Sequence record: OR769032.1
Direction: 5' to 3' (one strand)
Length of the DNA stretch: 64,000 nt
Source: Escherichia phage JoYop
Positions 4,323 through 32,327 of this stretch are shown in pieces (the stretch's first letter is position 1; every line of letters starts with the position of its first letter). Below the pieces are notes generated by a model. That model saw nothing but the letters and a program-made list of their open reading frames with translations. It did not search any database and was not told the origin of the DNA. The position numbers and the translations under genes were made by a program.

Positions 4323-4334
4323 TTGATTGATTAT

Positions 4335-4348
4335 GGGGCTTCGGCCCC
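4335..4348 (+). terminator. GC hairpin ggggcttcggcccc immediately after gene 18
   Basis: 5-bp GC stem with ttcg loop 13 nt after the gp18 stop; typical T4 inter-cistronic hairpin. Confidence 0.5.
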
Positions 4349-4413
4349 TATTATCGAGGAAACAAGTGATTATTTCTAAGTTTGTTACAATAAAACCAAG
4401 AAATCATTCAAAA

Positions 4414-4971
4414 ATGTGGTCGACAATTCTGGGATATAAAGTATCATATCATGATACAATATCTGTTCCAATAGAATTAATGCCAAAGAATAGTAATAAA
4501 ATAGTTGACGCTAAATGCGATTTGTGCGGTGTTAAATTTAGTAGAAGCATTCAGCTTTTAAATAGAACACCCACCCACGCATGTAGAAAATGTAGCATTA
4601 AACAAGTTGCTATTAAAAATTCGGAAGTTCAATCTGGAATAAGCAGACCATGGCAAAGAGGCGATAAACATCCTCGATGGACTGGTAAAAGAAAAGAGTT
4701 TGCATTATATGCTAGTAGAGTTCATTCTATAACTAAGTCAGCTAAAATAAGAAAAATTTGGTCAAAATGGCCGAATGCTGATAAAATAGGAGTGTGCGGC
4801 GTAGAAGGTGCTTATCAACTTGATCATAAAGTATCTATCAAATATGGATTTGATAATTTAATTCCTCCGGAAATTATAGCAAGCGTAAAAAATTTAGAAA
4901 TAATCACTTGGGAATCCAACCGAGAAAAGTCAAAAAGAAATAGCGTAGATCTTTGGGATTTACTAGAATGA
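4414..4971 (+). CDS. HNH-family endonuclease, probable free-standing homing endonuclease (about 185 aa from first ATG after the hairpin)
   Basis: ORF track gives 4327..4971 but that start is TTG inside the hairpin; protein has CxxC...CxxC (CDLCGV...CRKCS) and HNH-like motif LDHKVSIKYG...NLEIITWESNREK; AT-rich; no gene sits here in T4. Confidence 0.6.
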   Translation: MWSTILGYKVSYHDTISVPIELMPKNSNKIVDAKCDLCGVKFSRSIQLLNRTPTHACRKCSIKQVAIKNSEVQSGISRPWQRGDKHPRWTGKRKEFALYASRVHSITKSAKIRKIWSKWPNADKIGVCGVEGAYQLDHKVSIKYGFDNLIPPEIIASVKNLEIITWESNREKSKRNSVDLWDLLE

Positions 4972-4997: not shown

Positions 4998-5005
4998 TAT
5001 AAATA
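4998..5005 (+). promoter_or_regulatory. Late promoter box TATAAATA (distal, gene 19)
   Basis: Exact TATAAATA directly after the hairpin. Confidence 0.5.
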
Positions 5006-13939: not shown

Positions 13940-15358
13940 TTATGGATAGGTATAGATGATACCAGTTTCTAAAGCAGTTTTATGAATGATGTATCCATTA
14001 CGCGATTCTTGAACATCAACTTCTGGATAATCTTTCATCATCTTCTGGAGAGTGTAACGATGCAGGTAGTATTTACTATCTGGGTCTTCAGTTTTCCAAT
14101 CTTTACCTTCTTCGGTCATTTTTTGGATTTCATCCATAACCCACCAACCGCACCAGATGTAAGCTGAAGTACGATGTGGAAGAGGATGAACATAAGGTAG
14201 TTCACCTTCTGGTTCCGGAGCAACTTTATCAGTTACCTGAACTTGACCTTCTGCTGTAACAGTTTTGCTATCATAATCAGTGGCGGTAACAGTTGCAGTA
14301 ACTTCAATAGTTTGACTTCCAATAGATGAGGTGTCAACTGTATACACATTAGTCGATTCTTCTACAGGAGAAGAATCTTTCTTCCATGAATAAGTAATTT
14401 GCGCTTCTTCTGGAGCATCAGTCACATTAGCAGTAAATGTAGCCGAAGCATCTTGTTGAACGTTAATAGAAGGAGGAGTCAATGTAACCTGTGGATTCAT
14501 TGTCTTCTTATTAACTGTTAATGACACTTCATTAGAAGTAACTTCCTTTTCATTGTAATTTTCAGCAGTTACTTGGGCTACGCATTTAATTCTTTTTACT
14601 CCACTTGTAGTTGGAGTATAGCTAAATGTAGAGTTAGTTTCTCCACCAACCTGTGAATCATCTACATACCACTGATACGTAGCAGATGCTCCATCAGGTT
14701 GAGAAGCTAAGGCAGCAGTAAATTGAACTGGGGTTCCAATTACTCCAGCTGAAGGACTAGCAGGAGTTACTGCCAAAGTAGTTGTCTGTGTCTTTTTATT
14801 AACAGTCAGTGACACTTCATTAGAAGTAACTTCTTTTGCATCATAATCTGTCGCGGTTACTTGAGCTACACACTTAATTGTTTTAACTCCGCTTGTGTCA
14901 GGAGTGTAATTGAATGTAGCGCTAGTCGCTTCGCTCACAGGAGAACCGTCAACGTGCCATTGATACGTAGCAGATGCGCCTGATGGCTGCGAAGCCAAAG
15001 CAGCAGTAAATTCAACAGCTGTTCCAATCACTCCAGCCGCAGGACTAGCAGGAGTTACGGCTAAGGTAGTCGTCTGAGTTTTGTTTTTGACTGTGATAGT
15101 TGTTGTTGCTTCAGCCGTTTCCGGGCCTCCTTCAGAAAGTGTATTTGTTGCAACAACTTTAATTGTTTTTGTTCCAGCAGGTCCTTTTAACACATAATCA
15201 AAAGTTTCTGCCGATCCTACTTGAGGAGCATCGTCTACACTCCAAGCATAGGTAATAGTTCCACCTCCAGTTTCACCACTGGGTGTAGCAGTAAACTGCT
15301 TGGTTTCATCAATAACCCCTGTCGGTGTTTTAGGAGTTATATCAACTGTAAAAGCCAT
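13940..15358 (-). CDS. hoc: Hoc outer capsid decoration protein, 472 aa with tandemly duplicated Ig-like domain
   Basis: N-terminus MAFTVDITPKTPTG and C-terminal capsid-binding region resemble T4 Hoc; two consecutive 96-aa units each starting KKTQTTTLAVTPASP and ending EVTSNEVSLTVN. Confidence 0.85.
   Translation of the reverse strand: MAFTVDITPKTPTGVIDETKQFTATPSGETGGGTITYAWSVDDAPQVGSAETFDYVLKGPAGTKTIKVVATNTLSEGGPETAEATTTITVKNKTQTTTLAVTPASPAAGVIGTAVEFTAALASQPSGASATYQWHVDGSPVSEATSATFNYTPDTSGVKTIKCVAQVTATDYDAKEVTSNEVSLTVNKKTQTTTLAVTPASPSAGVIGTPVQFTAALASQPDGASATYQWYVDDSQVGGETNSTFSYTPTTSGVKRIKCVAQVTAENYNEKEVTSNEVSLTVNKKTMNPQVTLTPPSINVQQDASATFTANVTDAPEEAQITYSWKKDSSPVEESTNVYTVDTSSIGSQTIEVTATVTATDYDSKTVTAEGQVQVTDKVAPEPEGELPYVHPLPHRTSAYIWCGWWVMDEIQKMTEEGKDWKTEDPDSKYYLHRYTLQKMMKDYPEVDVQESRNGYIIHKTALETGIIYTYP
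14510..15085 (-). repeat. In-frame tandem repeat of period 288 bp (2 units) inside hoc
   Basis: tgacacttcattagaagtaacttc recurs at 14522 and 14810; units are diverged at nucleotide level; boundaries approximate. Confidence 0.75.
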
Positions 15359-18821: not shown

Positions 18822-19220
18822 TTATACTCTGTTACTGGAAGCCAGTTGCAGTTTTATCTGCTCAATATCATCAGGGTTATCGATGACCGAAAAGCGTATT
18901 TCTACTATCAGAGTATAATCATCATAAACCGGTATCACATTAACTGCTAATTTATCAATACGTGGCTCGTAGTTTCTTACTGCGCTTTCAATGTTACGCT
19001 CAACCGTGTCAGCAGTAAGAGGAGTCATATTCTCAAAAAGCTGGTCGGATAAATCACATCCAAATTCAGGGTCAAACGGTCTTGAACCTTTTCTCGTTGT
19101 AATAATTCCCAAAAGGCTATTTTTAATTGACCTTAATCCAAGCGATCTGGAAACGTCTTTGTCCCAGTCCATTTTCATTTCTGGGTCAATGTCAGAATAA
19201 AGCTTATTAATATTTGCCAT
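18822..19220 (-). CDS. 25: Baseplate wedge protein gp25 (132 aa)
   Basis: 132 aa equals T4 gp25; synteny 26-25. Confidence 0.88.
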   Translation of the reverse strand: MANINKLYSDIDPEMKMDWDKDVSRSLGLRSIKNSLLGIITTRKGSRPFDPEFGCDLSDQLFENMTPLTADTVERNIESAVRNYEPRIDKLAVNVIPVYDDYTLIVEIRFSVIDNPDDIEQIKLQLASSNRV

Positions 19221-19846
19221 TACAATAGCTCAAAGAATTCTTTGAGTCCTCTTATTACATGAGCGTGAGTTTTTCCACACTCTGGACACTTAATTGGAAC
19301 AGCCAAATAAACAGTAGGTTTTAAAAGCATATCTTTTATAGCTACAATATCTGACTCTGTGATGATAGAATATAAATCTTCCAATTCCTTTTCATTTAAG
19401 TCTTCAACTGGAATGCTTTCTCCGCTAGCATGAATCGTTTCTATACACGATACTATCATGTGGGCTATATTTTTATCATCAAAAATTTTAGGGTAATGGA
19501 ACTTAATTTTAATGTCGCCTAGTGTATACCAGAGGTCTTCTGGTGCATCTATTTGTGTATGTAATAGATTTATATGGGTTGGTATTTCAGTTCCACAGGT
19601 GCACTTCCAGGAGTTTTCGTGATTAACTTCTCCAAGAGAATGCGCCCATAAATGAATCAGTAATAGTTCTGATTCTTGACGGTTTAAATCTTTTGCATTT
19701 GTACAGTCTTTGATTAGCTTTTTAACAATTTCTTCTACGGAACCATTATTTTTGGCAGTAATAAGTTCTAGATATTCTTTAAGCGTGAATGCGCGACAGT
19801 TGATTATTTTAGAACCAACTCTCACGTCAAATTTATATTCATACAT
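19220..19846 (-). CDS. 26: Baseplate hub protein gp26 (208 aa)
   Basis: 208 aa equals T4 gp26; divergent from gene 51. Confidence 0.85.
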
Positions 19847-19867: not shown

Positions 19868-19875
19868 TATTTATA
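19868..19875 (-). promoter_or_regulatory. Late promoter box TATAAATA (minus strand) for genes 26-25
   Basis: Plus-strand tatttata; 22 bp upstream of gene 26 ATG. Confidence 0.55.
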
Positions 19876-19879
19876 AATA
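19872..19879 (+). promoter_or_regulatory. Late promoter box TATAAATA (plus strand) for gene 51
   Basis: Exact TATAAATA 17 bp upstream of gene 51 ATG; overlaps the minus-strand box by 4 bp. Confidence 0.55.
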
Positions 19880-19896: not shown

Positions 19897-20649
19897 ATGG
19901 CAAACATTATTCGTTGTAAATTACCAGATGGTGTTCATCGTTTTAAACCATTTACGGTAGAAGATTATCGAGATTTTTTGTTAGTTCGAAACGATATAGA
20001 ACATCGGTCACCACAAGAACAAAAAGAAGTAATTGCTGATTTAATTGCTGATTATTTTGGAGACTATCCAAAGACTTGGCAACCATTTATATTTTTGCAG
20101 GTATTTGTAGGGTCAATAGGCAAAACTAAAGTACCAGTCACATTTGTGTGTCCAAAATGTAAAAAAGAAAAGACGGTTCCATTTGAAATATACCAAAAAG
20201 AATTAAAGGAACCTGTTTTTGATGTAGCTAATGTTAAAATTAAATTAAAGTTTCCTTCTGAGTTTTATGAAAATAAAGCAAAGATGATTACTGAAAATAT
20301 TCATTCTGTTCAAGTAGATGAAACTTGGTATGATTGGAAGGAAATTAGCGAATCGAGTCAAATAGAACTTGTTGACGCCATCGAGATAGAAACATTAGAA
20401 AAAATTCTCGATTCAATGAATCCTATTAATTTAACATTGCACATGTCGTGTTGTAATAAGTATGTAAAAAAATACACTGATATAGTAGATGTGTTTAAGC
20501 TATTAGTTAACCCAGATGAAATATTTACTTTTTATCAAATTAATCACACACTCGTAAAAAGTAATTATAGCTTAAATTCAATAATGAAAATGATTCCTGC
20601 CGAGCGCGGATTCGTATTAAAACTGATTGAGAAGGATAAACATCAATGA
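19897..20649 (+). CDS. 51: Baseplate hub assembly protein gp51 (250 aa)
   Basis: Size and position between 26 and 27. Confidence 0.85.
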
Positions 20650-26136: not shown

Positions 26137-26140
26137 CAAT

Positions 26141-26158
26141 GGGGACCTTTCGGTCCCC
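26141..26158 (+). terminator. Hairpin ggggacctttcggtcccc plus T-run after gene 54
   Basis: 7-bp GC stem followed by atatttttt. Confidence 0.6.
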
Positions 26159-26165
26159 ATATTTT

Positions 26166-26487: not shown

Positions 26488-26516
26488 ATTATAACACAAC
26501 ATGAGGGACTTGTAAA
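26488..26516 (-). promoter_or_regulatory. Early promoter: -35 GTTTACA, 17-bp spacer, -10 TATAAT (minus strand)
   Basis: rc of 26511-26516 is TTTACA and rc of 26488-26493 is TATAAT; a near-identical element recurs at 41934-41962. Confidence 0.55.
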
Positions 26517-28574
26517 CTACATTTTGAACTTTTTAGACATTCCGTCGATGTTAACCAAAGAAGCCAAGATTTGAGAAACTTCATTTTCCTCTTCTTTTGA
26601 TTCTTCTACAAGGAATTGATTAAATCCGGCCATTGGACGAACTTCACCAGTTTCCATTAGATGGTCGCCATCATATACAGATTCCTCTAATTGTTCAGAA
26701 GGAGGAACAATCGTGCCTTCAACAAGATACTTATTATAGGCAGTTTCTTTCATAAAGTAAGTACTTACTTTATTAATCTTCAGTAAAATTCCACGCGGTA
26801 GAATAACTTCAGCTTCTGATGGAAATCCTGATAAATGACCCGGAACGATAACTTTAACTCGCTCAGCCCCTTTAATTACCATACCTACGCTAGTTTCAGC
26901 ATCTTCATTAGCATATGTAGAATGACTACCCATATGCATTAAATCTTCGGCGTCAACTGAACCTTCTCCTTCGCCAGAAAATACTGCTCCAGAATCATCT
27001 AAGGCCATATAGTTTTTACCATATTCACCAAAGATATTTGGTTTAAGCGATGTAGATACGAAGTTCTTGAAATAGAACATTTTATTTTCAATGTTATGAC
27101 GCAAAGTTTTAAAGGTAACTTCTTGCCCGCGGTAAAGAGTAGTTCCTGGAGGAAGAACTGAACCTTTAGCGAATGCAGAATCTAACGCTTCGATGTTCTT
27201 AATAGCACGTTCCATATATTCTTCACGGGTAGAATCTGGTTTACCCAAAAGGAACGAGTTCATTTCAACATATGAATCTGCACAATACTCTTCAATTACA
27301 TCAGACTCAGCCTGAGTTAATCCTTTTGGAGTTACTTCGGTGCTTGCGTATTCGTATGCCTGGGCAGCAGATTCATTAATCAATTTATAAATGCCATTCA
27401 TTACAAATTGAACAATAGCTGTCTTTTCATCTGGTGTAGCTTTAGAACCTTTAACTAAATCATTGACAATTTTCTTAATAACATCAAAGCTATTAGAAAT
27501 ATTAATGTCAGCAAGATCGCTTAAAATTTTATCAGTTTTATAATCAAAGAATTCTTTATTCTTTAAATATTCCTGAGAACCTTGATATGATATATCACTC
27601 TGCAACTTGATCGATGGATCGCGTAAACGCGCATGAGCCAGTGCAATATGATTTCGGAAACTTTCTAGTTCATAATCGTTAGATTTAAAACGAGAAGCAC
27701 TCCTCATACCACCGATAGCTCCTTTGCTGAAGTTTGAACCAACTTGAATAGCGCCAGAGTTCATTGGTCCTTCTGCTTTATATACCGGAACTTTAGATTC
27801 AAATTCCTGATACTTCTTAGCAGCGAAGCTATCGCCCTGAAGTGAAGCATCGACAGTAGAATATTGAGCTTGTGCTGCTAATCGACGACTGATTTTAGTT
27901 TTCTGAATAACAGCTTGATCAGTACGTTTATCATTTTCCAAAGCAATAGAAGCAGCAACAGCAACAGCTTTAGGAACCGCGTCTCCTGTTTTAACGTCTA
28001 CATAAACATCACCGACCTTTGATTCAACTTTTGTGAATAGCTCTGTTGAAATAGGAGGTACACCTGGAATGTCTTCTAATTTAGCATTTTTACGGTAAAC
28101 CATAATATATGCATATTTCTTATCATAGTCCCAGATTTCCTTTAAGAGAACATATCGACCTGCTCCTTTAGTACGTACTAAACGGTCAGCAATAACTTGC
28201 ATTTGACGAGCAGCTCCATTTGTTTTACTTTTTAGTACGCGGAATAAGCATGCGTCAATTTTATATTGCTTCATCGTTTGAAGAGCAGTATCAAAAACGG
28301 CATTAATAACGCCAATTGGATTTCCACCCAAATTTTTAAGCTTAACTAATGATAATTTCTCGTTGACACCTATCATTACGATATGCATCATTTTATCACC
28401 TGGTTTAACGTTTTTATTTGTATCACCACCAGAGGTGTATGTACAAAATCTAAATCCAGGGAGAACACTTTCTTCACCGGCTTGAATAGCAAAAATTTGC
28501 GGTATTTTATGCTTAGGATTTAAGTTAACAACCGGCGCCGAAGCGCCGTCAAATAATTCTGTAATAAGTTCCAT
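26517..28574 (-). CDS. Alt-like mono-ADP-ribosyltransferase paralogue (685 aa)
   Basis: N-terminal 220 aa closely parallel Alt (MELITELFD...); retains R-S-EXE ART motifs (LYRGQ, FVSTSL, EAEVILPRG); starts 3 nt after the alt stop. Confidence 0.8.
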   Translation of the reverse strand: MELITELFDGASAPVVNLNPKHKIPQIFAIQAGEESVLPGFRFCTYTSGGDTNKNVKPGDKMMHIVMIGVNEKLSLVKLKNLGGNPIGVINAVFDTALQTMKQYKIDACLFRVLKSKTNGAARQMQVIADRLVRTKGAGRYVLLKEIWDYDKKYAYIMVYRKNAKLEDIPGVPPISTELFTKVESKVGDVYVDVKTGDAVPKAVAVAASIALENDKRTDQAVIQKTKISRRLAAQAQYSTVDASLQGDSFAAKKYQEFESKVPVYKAEGPMNSGAIQVGSNFSKGAIGGMRSASRFKSNDYELESFRNHIALAHARLRDPSIKLQSDISYQGSQEYLKNKEFFDYKTDKILSDLADINISNSFDVIKKIVNDLVKGSKATPDEKTAIVQFVMNGIYKLINESAAQAYEYASTEVTPKGLTQAESDVIEEYCADSYVEMNSFLLGKPDSTREEYMERAIKNIEALDSAFAKGSVLPPGTTLYRGQEVTFKTLRHNIENKMFYFKNFVSTSLKPNIFGEYGKNYMALDDSGAVFSGEGEGSVDAEDLMHMGSHSTYANEDAETSVGMVIKGAERVKVIVPGHLSGFPSEAEVILPRGILLKINKVSTYFMKETAYNKYLVEGTIVPPSEQLEESVYDGDHLMETGEVRPMAGFNQFLVEESKEEENEVSQILASLVNIDGMSKKFKM

Positions 28575-28577
28575 GAT

Positions 28578-30626
28578 TTATCCTTGAACGAACTTGTAAG
28601 GCATGTTTGCAATATCTATGCAAGACGCAATAATTCCAAGAGATGATTCTACTTTCTGTTTAACATTTGATGAAACAAATGATGCAAAGTCAACTCTGTC
28701 TTCTATATCACCTGTCATTGTAACCAATTCACCAGTTTCCATTAAATGATCTCCGTCATAGATTACCGATTCGGTGAGTTCTTCTGTGGTCATAACTTCA
28801 GCTTGAATAAGCTTGTTGTTAGTTTTAACTGTTCCATCATTGTAAGATGCATCAGTTATTTTATTAACTTTGACCATTAATCCACGTGGCAAAATAACTT
28901 CCATTTCATTTGAAGGCGCTAAACTTCCACCGGGTAAAACAACATTGACTTTATCAGCCCCATTAATAACCCATCCAATTCCAACTAAATTATCGCTAGA
29001 ATTTACAAGCCCTTCATCAGTTTTATCAATAGAAACGCTTAAACGCTTTTCGTCTGGTAAAACACCCACAGATGAATCAGTCATCCAGGTACCAAAAATA
29101 TTTGGATATAATGATGTTGACACAAAATTTCTAAAATAAAAAACTCGATTTTTTACCAGTGCTTCATATATTGAAGGTAACATTCGTTGTGAACGATACA
29201 AAGTAATACCTTTTGGTAATCGTTCACCATTTTTAAAAGCAGAATCTAAATTATCAATAGCTTTTTCTATATCAGATGCTGTCAAAATACTTGTACGCTC
29301 ATCTGGATTATATAATCCCAAAAGAGCGTTATTTATGTCTACATATCCTGAACCTACGTATTCACGAATTCCGCGTTTTTGTGCCGGTGTATATTTAGAT
29401 GAATCTTTATTTTCGACTATGGGATGTAATGACCATCCAGCTGTAAGAGCATATCCACGCAATTCTCTTCGAATAATCTTTGTTTTTATTGCATTCCAAG
29501 AATTTTGTACTAACTCATTCGCAGCATCTTGATTTAAATGTGAATGCTTGTTAATATTTCTTTCTAACCAAGCGCCTTTATATTTTTCTAAAGTATCATC
29601 AACTATAGAAGCAATAGTTTCTAAAGTTTTTATTGAAGTAATAGATTCTTTTCGTAATATTTCTAAAGCTCTATTTTTTATTTCTGCATTAACATCAGAT
29701 TCTTTATCTTCAGGAATTATAGAAGCTTCTCTGAATGCCATTCCAGCTGTAACACTACTAAGAGCATTCTCTAATGCAAATCCTGAAGTAGAAATAACAG
29801 TTAATTCATTAGCATCAGAAATTAAAGGAGCGTCAGCAGGTTTATTTAATTCTGCTGCTGAAGCCTCAAATTTTTGAAACATCGGCGTTTCAAATCTAGA
29901 AGATTCCAATGACTGACTTTGTGCAATTGCTCTACGGGAAATTTTAACTTTAACGATTACAGCTTGGTCAGAACGCTTATCATTTTCTTGCGCAATAGAT
30001 GCTGCAATTGCCTCATTTTTAGTTACTTGAGCTCCAGTATCTTTATTGATATAAACATCACCGACTTTCGATTCAACTTTAGTAAAGAGCTCAGTACTAA
30101 TTTCTGGAACTCCTGGAATGTCTTCTAGTGATACATTTTTGCGATGTATAAGAATATATGCATACTTTTTATCATAATCCCAGAGTTCCTTAAGAAGGAC
30201 ATATCTGCCACCTGAACGACTACGGATAAGTCTATCAGCAATAACTTGAATTTGTCGAGCTTGGCCGGCGGTTTTAGACTTAAGAATACGAAGCATACAG
30301 GCATCAATTTTATACTGACGCATTGTTTGCATTGCAACAGTAAAAACTGAATTGATATAATTAATTGGGCTTGGACCGAGACCTTTTAATTTAGCAATTG
30401 AACCTTTAGCGGTTAATGTAAAAGGAACAATGTGCATCATTTTATCGCCCATTTTTAAATCGCGGTTAGTATCACCTCCGGATGTATAGGTACATAAACG
30501 AAAGCCTGGTTGTTCAATTGCATCATCAACATGAACTGAAAAAATTTGTGGTATTTTCTTCTTTGGATTTAAGTTTGTAATCGGAAGAGTAGTATCTTCG
30601 TCAAATAATTCTGTAATAAGTTCCAT
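28578..30626 (-). CDS. alt: Alt, virion-packaged mono-ADP-ribosyltransferase (682 aa)
   Basis: Matches T4 Alt as recalled (MELITELFDEDTTLPITNL...); R-S-EXE motifs LYRSQ, FVSTSL, EMEVILPRG; ORF track has an extra upstream Met. Confidence 0.85.
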   Translation of the reverse strand: MELITELFDEDTTLPITNLNPKKKIPQIFSVHVDDAIEQPGFRLCTYTSGGDTNRDLKMGDKMMHIVPFTLTAKGSIAKLKGLGPSPINYINSVFTVAMQTMRQYKIDACMLRILKSKTAGQARQIQVIADRLIRSRSGGRYVLLKELWDYDKKYAYILIHRKNVSLEDIPGVPEISTELFTKVESKVGDVYINKDTGAQVTKNEAIAASIAQENDKRSDQAVIVKVKISRRAIAQSQSLESSRFETPMFQKFEASAAELNKPADAPLISDANELTVISTSGFALENALSSVTAGMAFREASIIPEDKESDVNAEIKNRALEILRKESITSIKTLETIASIVDDTLEKYKGAWLERNINKHSHLNQDAANELVQNSWNAIKTKIIRRELRGYALTAGWSLHPIVENKDSSKYTPAQKRGIREYVGSGYVDINNALLGLYNPDERTSILTASDIEKAIDNLDSAFKNGERLPKGITLYRSQRMLPSIYEALVKNRVFYFRNFVSTSLYPNIFGTWMTDSSVGVLPDEKRLSVSIDKTDEGLVNSSDNLVGIGWVINGADKVNVVLPGGSLAPSNEMEVILPRGLMVKVNKITDASYNDGTVKTNNKLIQAEVMTTEELTESVIYDGDHLMETGELVTMTGDIEDRVDFASFVSSNVKQKVESSLGIIASCIDIANMPYKFVQG

Positions 30627-30649
30627 CATATCCTCTCTAGTGTTTATTC

Positions 30650-30657
30650 TATTTATA
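30650..30657 (-). promoter_or_regulatory. Late promoter box TATAAATA (minus strand) for alt
   Basis: Plus-strand tatttata 24 bp upstream of alt ATG; Alt is a late, head-packaged protein. Confidence 0.6.
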
Positions 30658-30662
30658 AAATT

Positions 30663-30680
30663 AAAGGCCCGAAGGCCTTT
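30663..30680 (-). terminator. Hairpin aaaggcccgaaggccttt downstream of the 62-aa ORF
   Basis: 7-bp stem overlapping the stop of ORF 30679..30867. Confidence 0.4.
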
Positions 30681-30867
30681 AATAATCTAGTGGTAAGAGA
30701 GTACGGTATATTTCAAACTTTGGACCTTTTTCATAGGCATCAAATGTTTCTGTAAATTTATTATAAGCATATGCATCTACAAATTCGAGAATGACTTGTG
30801 ATACGGAAGTAGAAACATCTCCGCCTTCTTTTTGAGCTATAACAATTGTTTCTAAATAAGCTTTCAT
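30679..30867 (-). CDS. Hypothetical protein (62 aa)
   Basis: ORF overlapping the gene 30 stop by 4 nt. Confidence 0.45.
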   Translation of the reverse strand: MKAYLETIVIAQKEGGDVSTSVSQVILEFVDAYAYNKFTETFDAYEKGPKFEIYRTLLPLDY

Positions 30868-32327
30868 AGACCAGTTACCTCATGAAAATCACCAAATACA
30901 TCCTCGAATGTATTAGCTTTCGTTTTATCTTCACGTAAACGAATTGCAATTGGAAGAAATAATTTAACGTAATCAGTACGTCCATCAGATTTTAACCAAC
31001 CATTGCATTCGCACTCTAGAATTTTTCCAATATAATAATTTTGGTTTTCCATAATACGAGTACGGTCAAGTTCATGTGATTTTACACCGGCTTTATCTTT
31101 TAAGCCTGAACCAGCATTTACCTTAATTTTTCCACACTCTGACTCAAGAATAAATCCACCCGCTTTAGTAGGGTCTTTACGGTGAGGATAAATTCCTACA
31201 ATTTTTAAATCAACATCAATTACTTCTTTAAATTTATAAAGATTTTTTGAACGGGCATTTTCCCATAACCCATCAACGTTTTTGAGAATAATACCTTCAA
31301 GACCTTGGTCAATATACTTTTTATAAATTACCTTGGCTTCGTCTAGGTTATTTACCACCTGGTTTTCAATTAAAATTACTTTGTCATATCCTGATGTCAT
31401 TTGTTCTAGTTTAGAAAAACGTACATCATACTTTAAACGAAATGCAGGAAGACCATATATTTCTACCAGCGGTACATAATCCCAGACCTGAAACTTCATG
31501 CATTGAGCTTCTTTTTCTGAAATAGTTCCCTTTAAAGATTTATTAGCGATTCCATTAGAAGTAGTACGTGATTCAGCTACTTCGGCGAATTCTTTAGCTT
31601 TACTAATTTCAGGATAAGCATCAAAAAGAAAATCTAGGCCTTCTGGCTCCTTTTTAACTTGCTCATGGTATACCAATTCGCCATCAATTAACACACCTTC
31701 TGGATGAATCTGGCGGGCTTCAGCGGTCATTTTGATTAACTCTTCTTTGAGAAGGTCTAATCCTAGATATTCATTACCAGCTCGTGATAAAAGACGAACA
31801 TCATCTAATTCATCACCTCTGACTTCAGCAAAACACCGAGCTCCATCAGCTTTTAACTGTGCAAAGGCTGGAAATTTAATATTCTTATTAATGCCTTTTT
31901 CATCATAAGAACTTGCAAGCATTTGAGGCTGTTCAGGAATTAAGCCTGGCCAAACTTTATTTGCAATAGATACAGAAGCACCGCATTCAAGGTCTCGCAT
32001 CATTACTCGACGTAATACTTCAACATCATCCTTTTTACCATCAGTGATATATCCAGTTAATTCCTCAATTGCAGCATTTCCAGTCAATTTCCGAGTAGCT
32101 AACGTGAATTCAATGAAGTCAAGCATATCGGTAATAGTCAGCATTCCAAAACTCTGGGTAGCAATACCAGGTTTAGGCCATTTCTTGATATAATACTGTA
32201 ACCCACGAGAATAAGTCAGACGATATACCCGTTTAAGCAATTCATTATCTTTATTCTTTTCAAGAATTGCTTGCTTCTGCTTAGTTGATCCAATAGATGC
32301 TATTTCATTCAGAATTTTAAGAATCAT
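30864..32327 (-). CDS. 30: ATP-dependent DNA ligase gp30 (487 aa)
   Basis: 487 aa equals T4 DNA ligase; adenylation motif LKADGARCF. Confidence 0.92.
   Translation of the reverse strand: MILKILNEIASIGSTKQKQAILEKNKDNELLKRVYRLTYSRGLQYYIKKWPKPGIATQSFGMLTITDMLDFIEFTLATRKLTGNAAIEELTGYITDGKKDDVEVLRRVMMRDLECGASVSIANKVWPGLIPEQPQMLASSYDEKGINKNIKFPAFAQLKADGARCFAEVRGDELDDVRLLSRAGNEYLGLDLLKEELIKMTAEARQIHPEGVLIDGELVYHEQVKKEPEGLDFLFDAYPEISKAKEFAEVAESRTTSNGIANKSLKGTISEKEAQCMKFQVWDYVPLVEIYGLPAFRLKYDVRFSKLEQMTSGYDKVILIENQVVNNLDEAKVIYKKYIDQGLEGIILKNVDGLWENARSKNLYKFKEVIDVDLKIVGIYPHRKDPTKAGGFILESECGKIKVNAGSGLKDKAGVKSHELDRTRIMENQNYYIGKILECECNGWLKSDGRTDYVKLFLPIAIRLREDKTKANTFEDVFGDFHEVTGL

Follow-up and report, generated by a model that had tools for sequence, protein, structure and literature searches.

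The 64,000-nucleotide stretch of Escherichia phage JoYop studied here (sequence record OR769032.1; the whole stretch is called the window) is DNA of a T4-like phage of the genus Tequatrovirus; the nearest GenBank genomes showed about 95.7% identity to it over 24 kb. In it the gene alt is followed directly by a second gene of the same family, whose product we refer to as Alt2. In T4, Alt is a packaged and injected mono-ADP-ribosyltransferase that modifies RNA polymerase alpha (Arg265) and other host proteins. Alt2 was found to be a paralogue of the classical alt product of the window (Alt1), with all R-S-ExE residues of an ADP-ribosyltransferase (ART), an ART fold in its structural model and two sequence motifs for the prohead protease gp21. 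Based on these features Alt2 is probably a second arginine-specific mono-ART that is packaged in the head, processed by gp21 and injected, with targets at least partly unlike those of Alt.

The two genes are:

28578-30626, minus strand: alt, encoding Alt1 (682 amino acids, aa), the T4-type allele
26517-28574, minus strand: Alt2 (685 aa), the second Alt paralogue

The initial annotation of this DNA had described two adjacent Alt-type genes of 685 and 682 aa, 3 nt apart, and both open reading frames (ORFs) were found, joined as TAA-atc-ATG. Its end coordinate for the pair, 30629, takes in one extra in-frame Met codon and was corrected to 30626 as the start of alt.

Alt2 as an Alt-family ADP-ribosyltransferase

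BLASTP comparison of Alt1 and Alt2 gave 42% identity (E = 1e-160). Alt1 is 99% identical to T4 Alt (NP_049811; 672 of 682 residues), and Alt2 is 41% identical to T4 Alt. Between the two paralogues the identity was 68% over residues 1-237, 13% over residues 238-415, 36% over residues 416-631 and 44% over residues 632-685. Both proteins open with MELITELFD, and the first two of these regions bear out the conserved N-terminus of about 220 aa and the heavily diverged stretch before the catalytic core that had been noticed initially. Both proteins also match phrog_802 ("Alt-like RNA polymerase ADP-ribosyltransferase") over their full length, Alt2 over residues 1-685 with E = 3e-255. The parts of Alt2 are:

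27864-28574, minus strand: N-terminal domain, residues 1-237 (Pfam Tevenvirinae_ADPRT, PF26846), containing the propeptide MELITE with a predicted cut before LFD
27330-27863, minus strand: middle helical region, residues 238-415, paralogue-specific
26682-27329, minus strand: ART catalytic domain, residues 416-631, recognised by PF03496, Foldseek and invariant catalytic residues
26517-26681, minus strand: predicted C-terminal propeptide, residues 632-685, and stop codon, after the predicted gp21 site QLEE, with the cut before SVYDGDHLMETGE

The catalytic motifs quoted in the initial annotation were all present. The arginine motif is LYRSQ in Alt1 and LYRGQ in Alt2, FVSTSL is common to both, and the ExE motif is EMEVILPRG in Alt1 and EAEVILPRG in Alt2. 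In Alt2 the catalytic residues are R482, S507-T-S509 and E587-A-E589, with SGFPS in the ADP-ribosylating turn-turn (ARTT) loop; those of Alt1 are R478, S503-T-S505 and E574-x-E576. R482, S507, S509, E587 and E589 were invariant in 20 homologues and were kept in 28 Alt proteins from at least eight genera. The match to PF03496 (ADPrib_exo_Tox, cut-off 23.4 bits) reached 72.6 bits for Alt2 and 121.6 bits (E = 3e-35) for Alt1.

The AlphaFold2 model of Alt2 had a predicted local distance difference test (pLDDT) score of 74.5 overall. Its middle region was all-helical (pLDDT 76-92), a disordered acidic loop lay inside the ART domain at residues 518-555, and pLDDT was low over residues 629-662. With this model Foldseek returned Vis (4xzj; E = 2e-6, target TM-score 0.62), then C3bot, CDTa, Ia, VIP2 and Certhrax, with target TM-scores for the ART toxins of about 0.6; the ART fold on which the initial annotation had made its proposal for the second gene depend is present in the model. 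A phmmer search of Alt2 against the PDB gave no match at E <= 0.01. Together these results support Alt2 as an Alt-family ADP-ribosyltransferase paralogue with predicted activity.

The N-terminal domain was modelled confidently, and no convincing structural relative of it was found. Its PF26846 annotation was precomputed on homologues 97% identical to Alt2. Among 1.84 billion representative proteins, 69 clusters belonged to the family of this domain; almost all were Alt-like and had an ART domain, and on this distribution the family is confined to Alt-like proteins of T4-like phages. Two distant relatives of the domain (P0183, 485 aa, and P0184, 541 aa; 25-27% identity) have no Pfam-detectable ART or other domain downstream and may represent other cargo on the same N-terminal module.

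Alt2 is under strong purifying selection. Comparison of the window with phage JK08 gave a nonsynonymous divergence (dN) of 0.012 and a synonymous divergence (dS) of 0.28 over residues 238-685, and dN/dS was about 0.04 and similar in every domain, including the ART domain. The middle region, 13% identical to that of Alt1, was 43-58% identical to those of Dhakavirus and other Alt2-clade proteins. In C3-like ARTs an aromatic residue in ARTT turn 1 contributes to substrate recognition; the Alt2 clade has an aromatic residue there (SGFPSEAE, TEYAEEAE) and the Alt1 clade does not. The loop after the STS motif also differs between Alt1 and Alt2. Given the diverged middle (13%) and ART (36%) regions, the differences in these two loops and the long retention of both copies, it is plausible that the targets of Alt2 and Alt differ.

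Expression and processing signals

The genes and signals flanking the pair are:

30864-32327, minus strand: DNA ligase gp30, from the gene order read from the window
30679-30867, minus strand: alt.1 homologue, from the same gene order
30663-30680, minus strand: hairpin AAAGGCC-TTCG-GGCCTTT, directly 3' of the alt.1 stop codon, read from the sequence
30650-30657, minus strand: T4-type late promoter box TATAAATA, which closely follows the hairpin and precedes the alt ATG by 23 nt
26488-26516, minus strand: sigma-70 (T4 early-type) promoter, TTTACA-17 nt-TATAAT with an upstream TG, abutting the Alt2 stop codon
26166-26456, minus strand: alt.-3 homologue, DUF5498, 96 aa (PF17602, E = 1e-64; T4 synteny)

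The late promoter that had been reported upstream of alt was located as the TATAAATA box at 30650-30657, which is the sole exact late box on the minus strand between 26400 and 31000. Just upstream of alt2 we found no exact late box, strong sigma-70 site or convincing MotA-type site. As the sole late box precedes alt and no promoter precedes alt2, late co-transcription of the two genes is supported, and such co-transcription would fit a packaged protein. An AAGGA sequence stands 6 nt ahead of the Alt2 ATG, which follows the alt stop codon after 3 nt. The hairpin at 30663-30680 is probably a terminator that shields alt from upstream early transcripts, and in phage Merlin a terminator is annotated at the equivalent place.

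The longest alt ORF, counted from an upstream ATG, is 28578-30629 (683 aa). A Shine-Dalgarno sequence, GAGG, was found 5 nt before the second ATG (30626), and initiation there yields a product of 682 aa, as in the T4 annotation. The two in-frame ATGs that open alt (30626-30629) bear on residue numbers as well: in T4 Alt, mutation of an ExE glutamate (E577A in the numbering of the paper) abolishes activity (PMC11404850), and this residue would be 576 in 682-aa numbering and 577 when counted from the upstream ATG. The label may reflect an offset in published residue numbers.

In T4 Alt, gp21 cleaves behind ITE-6 and LTE-619 (PMC5694885), and Alt1 of the window has the same two motifs. Alt2 carries the (L/I)-x-E motif of gp21 at corresponding places: its start MELITE|LFD is identical to that of Alt1, and QLEE|SVYDGDHLMETGE is homologous to the LTE-619 site of T4. 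The positions in Alt2 (ITE-6 and LEE-631), identified as sequence motifs only, match the family pattern of one gp21 motif at the N-terminus and one about 55-65 residues from the C-terminus. E6 and E631 were invariant across the Alt family, S632 was nearly invariant, and a YDGD..ETGE block after the C-terminal site was strongly conserved. In the model, both predicted cleavage sites of Alt2 lie in segments of low confidence that are probably exposed. The genes for the gp21 protease and the gp22 scaffold are also within the window. Mature Alt2 is predicted to be 69.0 kDa and mature Alt1 is 68.1 kDa, so that co-migration on gels is expected. Full-length recombinant T4 Alt was reported to be active without processing (PMC10468400, PMC11404850); processing is therefore not required for activity, and the propeptides are unlikely to be inhibitors.

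Downstream of the pair, the alt.-3 homologue is a neighbour outside the ART pair. The promoter at 26488-26516, which is near-consensus (11 of 12 consensus matches) and the best of the region, is predicted to serve this gene. The baseplate genes 54 and 48 follow beyond it on the plus strand. With gene 30/alt.1 on one side, alt.-3/gene 54 on the other and the baseplate genes on the opposite strand, Alt2 has the genomic position of the Alt family. A bidirectional terminator hairpin was also seen at 26139-26160, between the alt.-3 homologue and gene 54.

Duplication, loss in T4 and natural fusions

Other T4-like phages have two or three tandem copies in the same orientation between ligase/alt.1 and alt.-3/gp54. 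In Dhakavirus dhaeg the tandem alt genes are likewise 3 nt apart, and tandem genes were also found in Moonvirus Merlin and Aeromonas phage Riv-10. Three tandem Alt paralogues were seen in phage LQ5 (Dhakavirus; L008:1655-7767) and in Pseudomonas phage PspYZU05 (L011:5641-11428).

Neighbour-joining trees were built for each domain with 100 bootstrap replicates each. The middle and ART trees grouped the proteins by paralogue, with an Alt1 clade at 100% and a clade of Alt2 with the downstream Dhakavirus genes at 99-100%; in the ART tree the Alt2 clade also included the downstream gene of Moonvirus Merlin (99%). The N-terminal tree grouped by genus, with Tequatrovirus Alt1 and Alt2 together at 100% and the Dhakavirus copies at 85%. 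Grouping by paralogue in the middle and ART domains indicates that the duplication is older than the split of Tequatrovirus and Dhakavirus, and grouping by genus in the N-terminal tree indicates concerted evolution of that domain within genomes. The gene order of both copies is the same in the two genera. In the Aeromonas and Pseudomonas phages the copies of one genome cluster with each other and may be separate duplications. Synonymous divergence between alt and alt2 of the window was saturated throughout (dS 1.1-1.8), so that conversion of the N-terminal domain cannot be dated by dS and was not recent in the lineage of the window. The longest exact match between the two genes is 28 nt, at the gene start.

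The initial annotation could not recall whether T4 annotates the second gene. It does so as a duplication of alt, in the form of the remnant alt.-1/alt.-2 and not of a full gene: according to the T4 record, alt.-1 and alt.-2, which lie between alt and alt.-3, represent an ancient duplication of the initial part of alt. When T4 was aligned to the window, alt.-1 (NP_049810) and alt.-2 (NP_049809) corresponded to Alt2 codons 1 to about 116. The reading frame is shifted by 1 nt near codon 56, and further on the catalytic domain is lost by a deletion of 1699 bp:

26537-28235, minus strand: the 1699-bp segment deleted in T4 and 90 other records, from the alignment of T4 with the window

The deletion is flanked by 9-bp direct repeats, CTAAAAAGT, at 28227-28235 and 26528-26536. 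The PHROG families of both T4 fragments match Alt2 more strongly than Alt1. Judged by this alignment, T4 alt.-1/alt.-2 is a remnant of Alt2, and Alt2 is the intact form of a gene that T4 has lost. The T4-type junction occurs in 91 GenBank records, which include T4 strains, T4T, RB55, RB59 and the field isolates vB_EcoM_112, HY03 and SG1, and with field isolates among them the deletion is seen to be a natural allele.

Alt2 residues 117-685 have counterparts with 95-99% identity in about 400 GenBank records, T2 and T6 included. In T6 (AXN58232) and T2 (BBF63359) the ORF named 'alt.-2' encodes 685 aa and is 97% identical to Alt2 of the window, which is its orthologue by sequence; the T6 record words the difference inversely, as an 'insertion in alt.-2'. 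Both genes are already called Alt-like in many GenBank records. Across Tequatrovirus Alt2 was more conserved than Alt1. At least two divergent forms of Alt1 exist within the genus, since Alt1 of T2 and T6 (697 aa) is 70% identical to the form of T4 and the window, and only 174 records match the middle and ART regions of the T4-type Alt1 at at least 90%. The genes compared with 28578-30626 of the window were:

L017:4363-6456: T6 Alt1
L018:5798-7891: T2 Alt1

A third arrangement, Alt1N::Alt2C, has one gene between alt.1 and alt.-3, with an Alt1-like 5' end that continues as Alt2-like sequence. It was found in five carriers, phage SCS4 (GenBank) and four metagenomic or SRA contigs:

L006:3650-5710: phage SCS4, switch at codon ~155
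L005:6001-8055: switch at codon ~184
L003:6001-8061: switch at codon ~221
L019:3501-5561: switch at codon ~48
L020:3501-5561: switch at codon ~108

These fusions appear to have arisen independently, by unequal crossing-over within the N-terminal domain common to both genes and with loss of the Alt1 body. An assembly artefact was considered and is unlikely, given the 28-nt longest exact match, five different clean breakpoints and one complete genome in GenBank. In phage SCS4 and the four contigs the Alt2 module is the only Alt catalytic module present. Three states of the locus were thus observed: both genes, in the majority; Alt1 with a broken alt2, as in T4; and the Alt1N::Alt2C fusion.

Some further features were observed elsewhere in the window. 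A 214-aa ORF with a TTG start (4327-4971, plus strand; phrog_5104, unknown function; no Pfam match) sits between ORFs of 659 and 163 aa, which by size and order are the tail sheath gp18 and the tail tube gp19, and late-promoter boxes follow at 4998 and 5057. T4 is not known to have a gene between gp18 and gp19. At the T4 hoc position (13940-15358, minus strand) there is a 472-aa protein with PKD and Ig-like domain matches; T4 Hoc, with 376 aa, is shorter, and the protein of the window may carry an extra Ig-like domain. At 19868-19879 two exact TATAAATA late boxes overlap on opposite strands, between the divergent ORFs 19220-19846 (minus strand) and 19897-20649 (plus strand).

Role of Alt2 and comparison with known systems

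We propose that an ancient tandem duplication of the T4 alt gene gave rise to two three-part proteins, each with a shared N-terminal domain of about 237 residues that opens with a short propeptide, a paralogue-specific helical middle and a C3/VIP2-like R-S-ExE mono-ART followed by a C-terminal propeptide. The two genes would be expressed on one late message from the TATAAATA promoter upstream of alt, and translation of Alt2, whose gene begins 3 nt past the alt stop codon, would use a separate ribosome-binding site (AAGGA). Alt2, like Alt, would enter the prohead core, a step in which the shared N-terminal domain may, as a reasonable guess, act in head incorporation. The gp21 encoded in the window would trim Alt2 after ITE-6 and LEE-631 to a mature protein of about 69 kDa. 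This protein would be ejected with the DNA into the next host and would there ADP-ribosylate arginines of a set of host proteins at least partly distinct from the targets of Alt.

Since both proteins are ExE arginine-type ARTs with N-terminal domains 68% identical, Alt2 might instead be a redundant copy, packaged and active on the same targets as Alt (e.g. RNA polymerase alpha) and providing extra dosage or backup. Either catalytic module can indeed be lost in viable phages, by the alt2 deletion (91 records) or in the fusions without the Alt1 catalytic part. Redundancy is nevertheless unlikely, as the middle and ART regions are 13% and 36% identical, the ARTT and post-STS loops differ, and strong purifying selection has maintained both copies from a time before Tequatrovirus and Dhakavirus separated, which is unexpected for a purely redundant gene. 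We consider it more improbable still that Alt2 stays unpackaged as a late cytoplasmic ART of the producing cell, with its conserved termini serving otherwise. The activity of unprocessed full-length T4 Alt would allow this (PMC10468400, PMC11404850), and direct evidence placing Alt2 in virions was not found. However, both mapped gp21 motifs and the entire N-terminal domain that Alt2 has in common with packaged Alt are conserved, the family of this domain is restricted to Alt-like proteins of T4-like phages, and an Alt1 N-terminus on an Alt2 body persists in the natural fusions. It is highly improbable that Alt2 is a duplicate in decay or without catalytic activity, whether as a pseudoenzyme or as an internal head protein with a structural role only: T4 does have only the broken remnant alt.-1/alt.-2, but about 400 genomes have an intact ORF, dN/dS is close to 0.04 for all domains, ART included, the catalytic residues are all invariant, and Alt2 is better conserved across Tequatrovirus than Alt1.

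Some points weigh against a second injected ART with targets of its own. The searchable literature held descriptive mentions of Alt2 only, and no virion proteomics, enzymology or genetics. The targets of Alt1 and Alt2 could overlap heavily, because both are ExE-type enzymes with a shared N-terminal domain. Alt2 is dispensable, as the deletion allele is found in T4 and 90 other records. The structural models were built on shallow alignments of 13-20 sequences. As mature Alt1 and Alt2 would co-migrate, classical gels neither support nor contradict the packaging of Alt2. With these points considered, a packaged and injected Alt2 with partly different targets is the reading we favour. A wider proposal is made more tentatively, namely that Alt2, as a second injected ART with its own targets, is the conserved member of the pair and Alt the variable one, and that the N-terminal domain is a head-delivery module which recombination keeps similar in the two copies and which can be exchanged between catalytic bodies, as seen in the natural Alt1N::Alt2C fusions.

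Alt is the textbook case of an enzyme which a phage carries in its head and injects so as to reprogram its host, and nearly all work on it has been done in T4. The second paralogue is broken in T4; in most related phages, T2 and T6 among them, Alt2 is intact and strongly conserved. Should Alt2 be injected and act on targets of its own, then early host takeover by T-even phages is incompletely described, and work in T4 has missed part of the injected enzyme set. In that case Alt2 might also explain differences among T2, T4 and T6 on hosts with different defences.

The gene pair itself is common, annotated in hundreds of genomes and already published. Nolan et al. 2006 (PMC1524935) listed paralogous alt duplications in RB49 and 44RR as well as alt.-1/alt.-2 of T4, the 2014 genome paper on ZZ1 (PMC4177764) noted alt duplication in Ac42, JS98 and Bp7, and a 2026 paper (PMC13600099) described a pair of Alt-like paralogues with 43% identity in phages 6phi13 and SHFML-11 and suggested divergent targets. 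Our analysis adds a duplication older than the Tequatrovirus/Dhakavirus split, concerted evolution of the N-terminal domain, the natural fusions, and the conservation of Alt2 beside an Alt1 in two forms.

In comparison with known systems, Alt2 has the three-part architecture, the length and the R-S-ExE residues of T4 Alt, along with a 68% identical N-terminal domain, both gp21 motifs, the locus and the operon. It differs in overall sequence (41% identical), most of all in the middle, where the sequences are unrelated (13%), and in the ART domain (36%), in ARTT turn 1 and the post-STS loop, and in its C-terminal end, which is KFKM in Alt2 and KFVQG in T4 Alt. T4 alt.-1/alt.-2 and the T2/T6 'alt.-2' are the same gene as Alt2, the T4 version being frameshifted and without 1699 bp. 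Tandem Alt loci like that of the window are found in Dhakavirus dhaeg, JS10 and JS98, Moonvirus Merlin, Aeromonas phages 44RR and Riv-10, Pseudomonas phage PspYZU05 and Acinetobacter phages Ac42 and ZZ1. In Dhakavirus and Moonvirus the downstream copy is orthologous to Alt2, and copy number and lengths vary among these loci.

ModA and ModB are also phage-encoded R-S-E mono-ARTs. They act on host transcription and translation proteins, and unlike Alt2 they are about 200 aa long, encoded by early genes and not packaged. The comparison with them that had been suggested initially gave no significant similarity (BLASTP E = 0.48 for ModA and 2.1 for ModB), and with its 685 aa and late operon Alt2 was rejected as a member of the Mod family. 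With Vis, C3bot, CDTa, iota Ia and VIP2, Alt2 shares the ART fold and the R-S-ExE site at a sequence identity of 14-19%, and its ARTT loop GFPSEAE resembles their aromatic-x-x-ExE pattern. Unlike the C3-like and binary toxins, Alt2 has about 415 extra N-terminal residues and predicted protease-removable propeptides, and its delivery would be by the phage head, whereas the toxins are delivered by secretion or a binding component.

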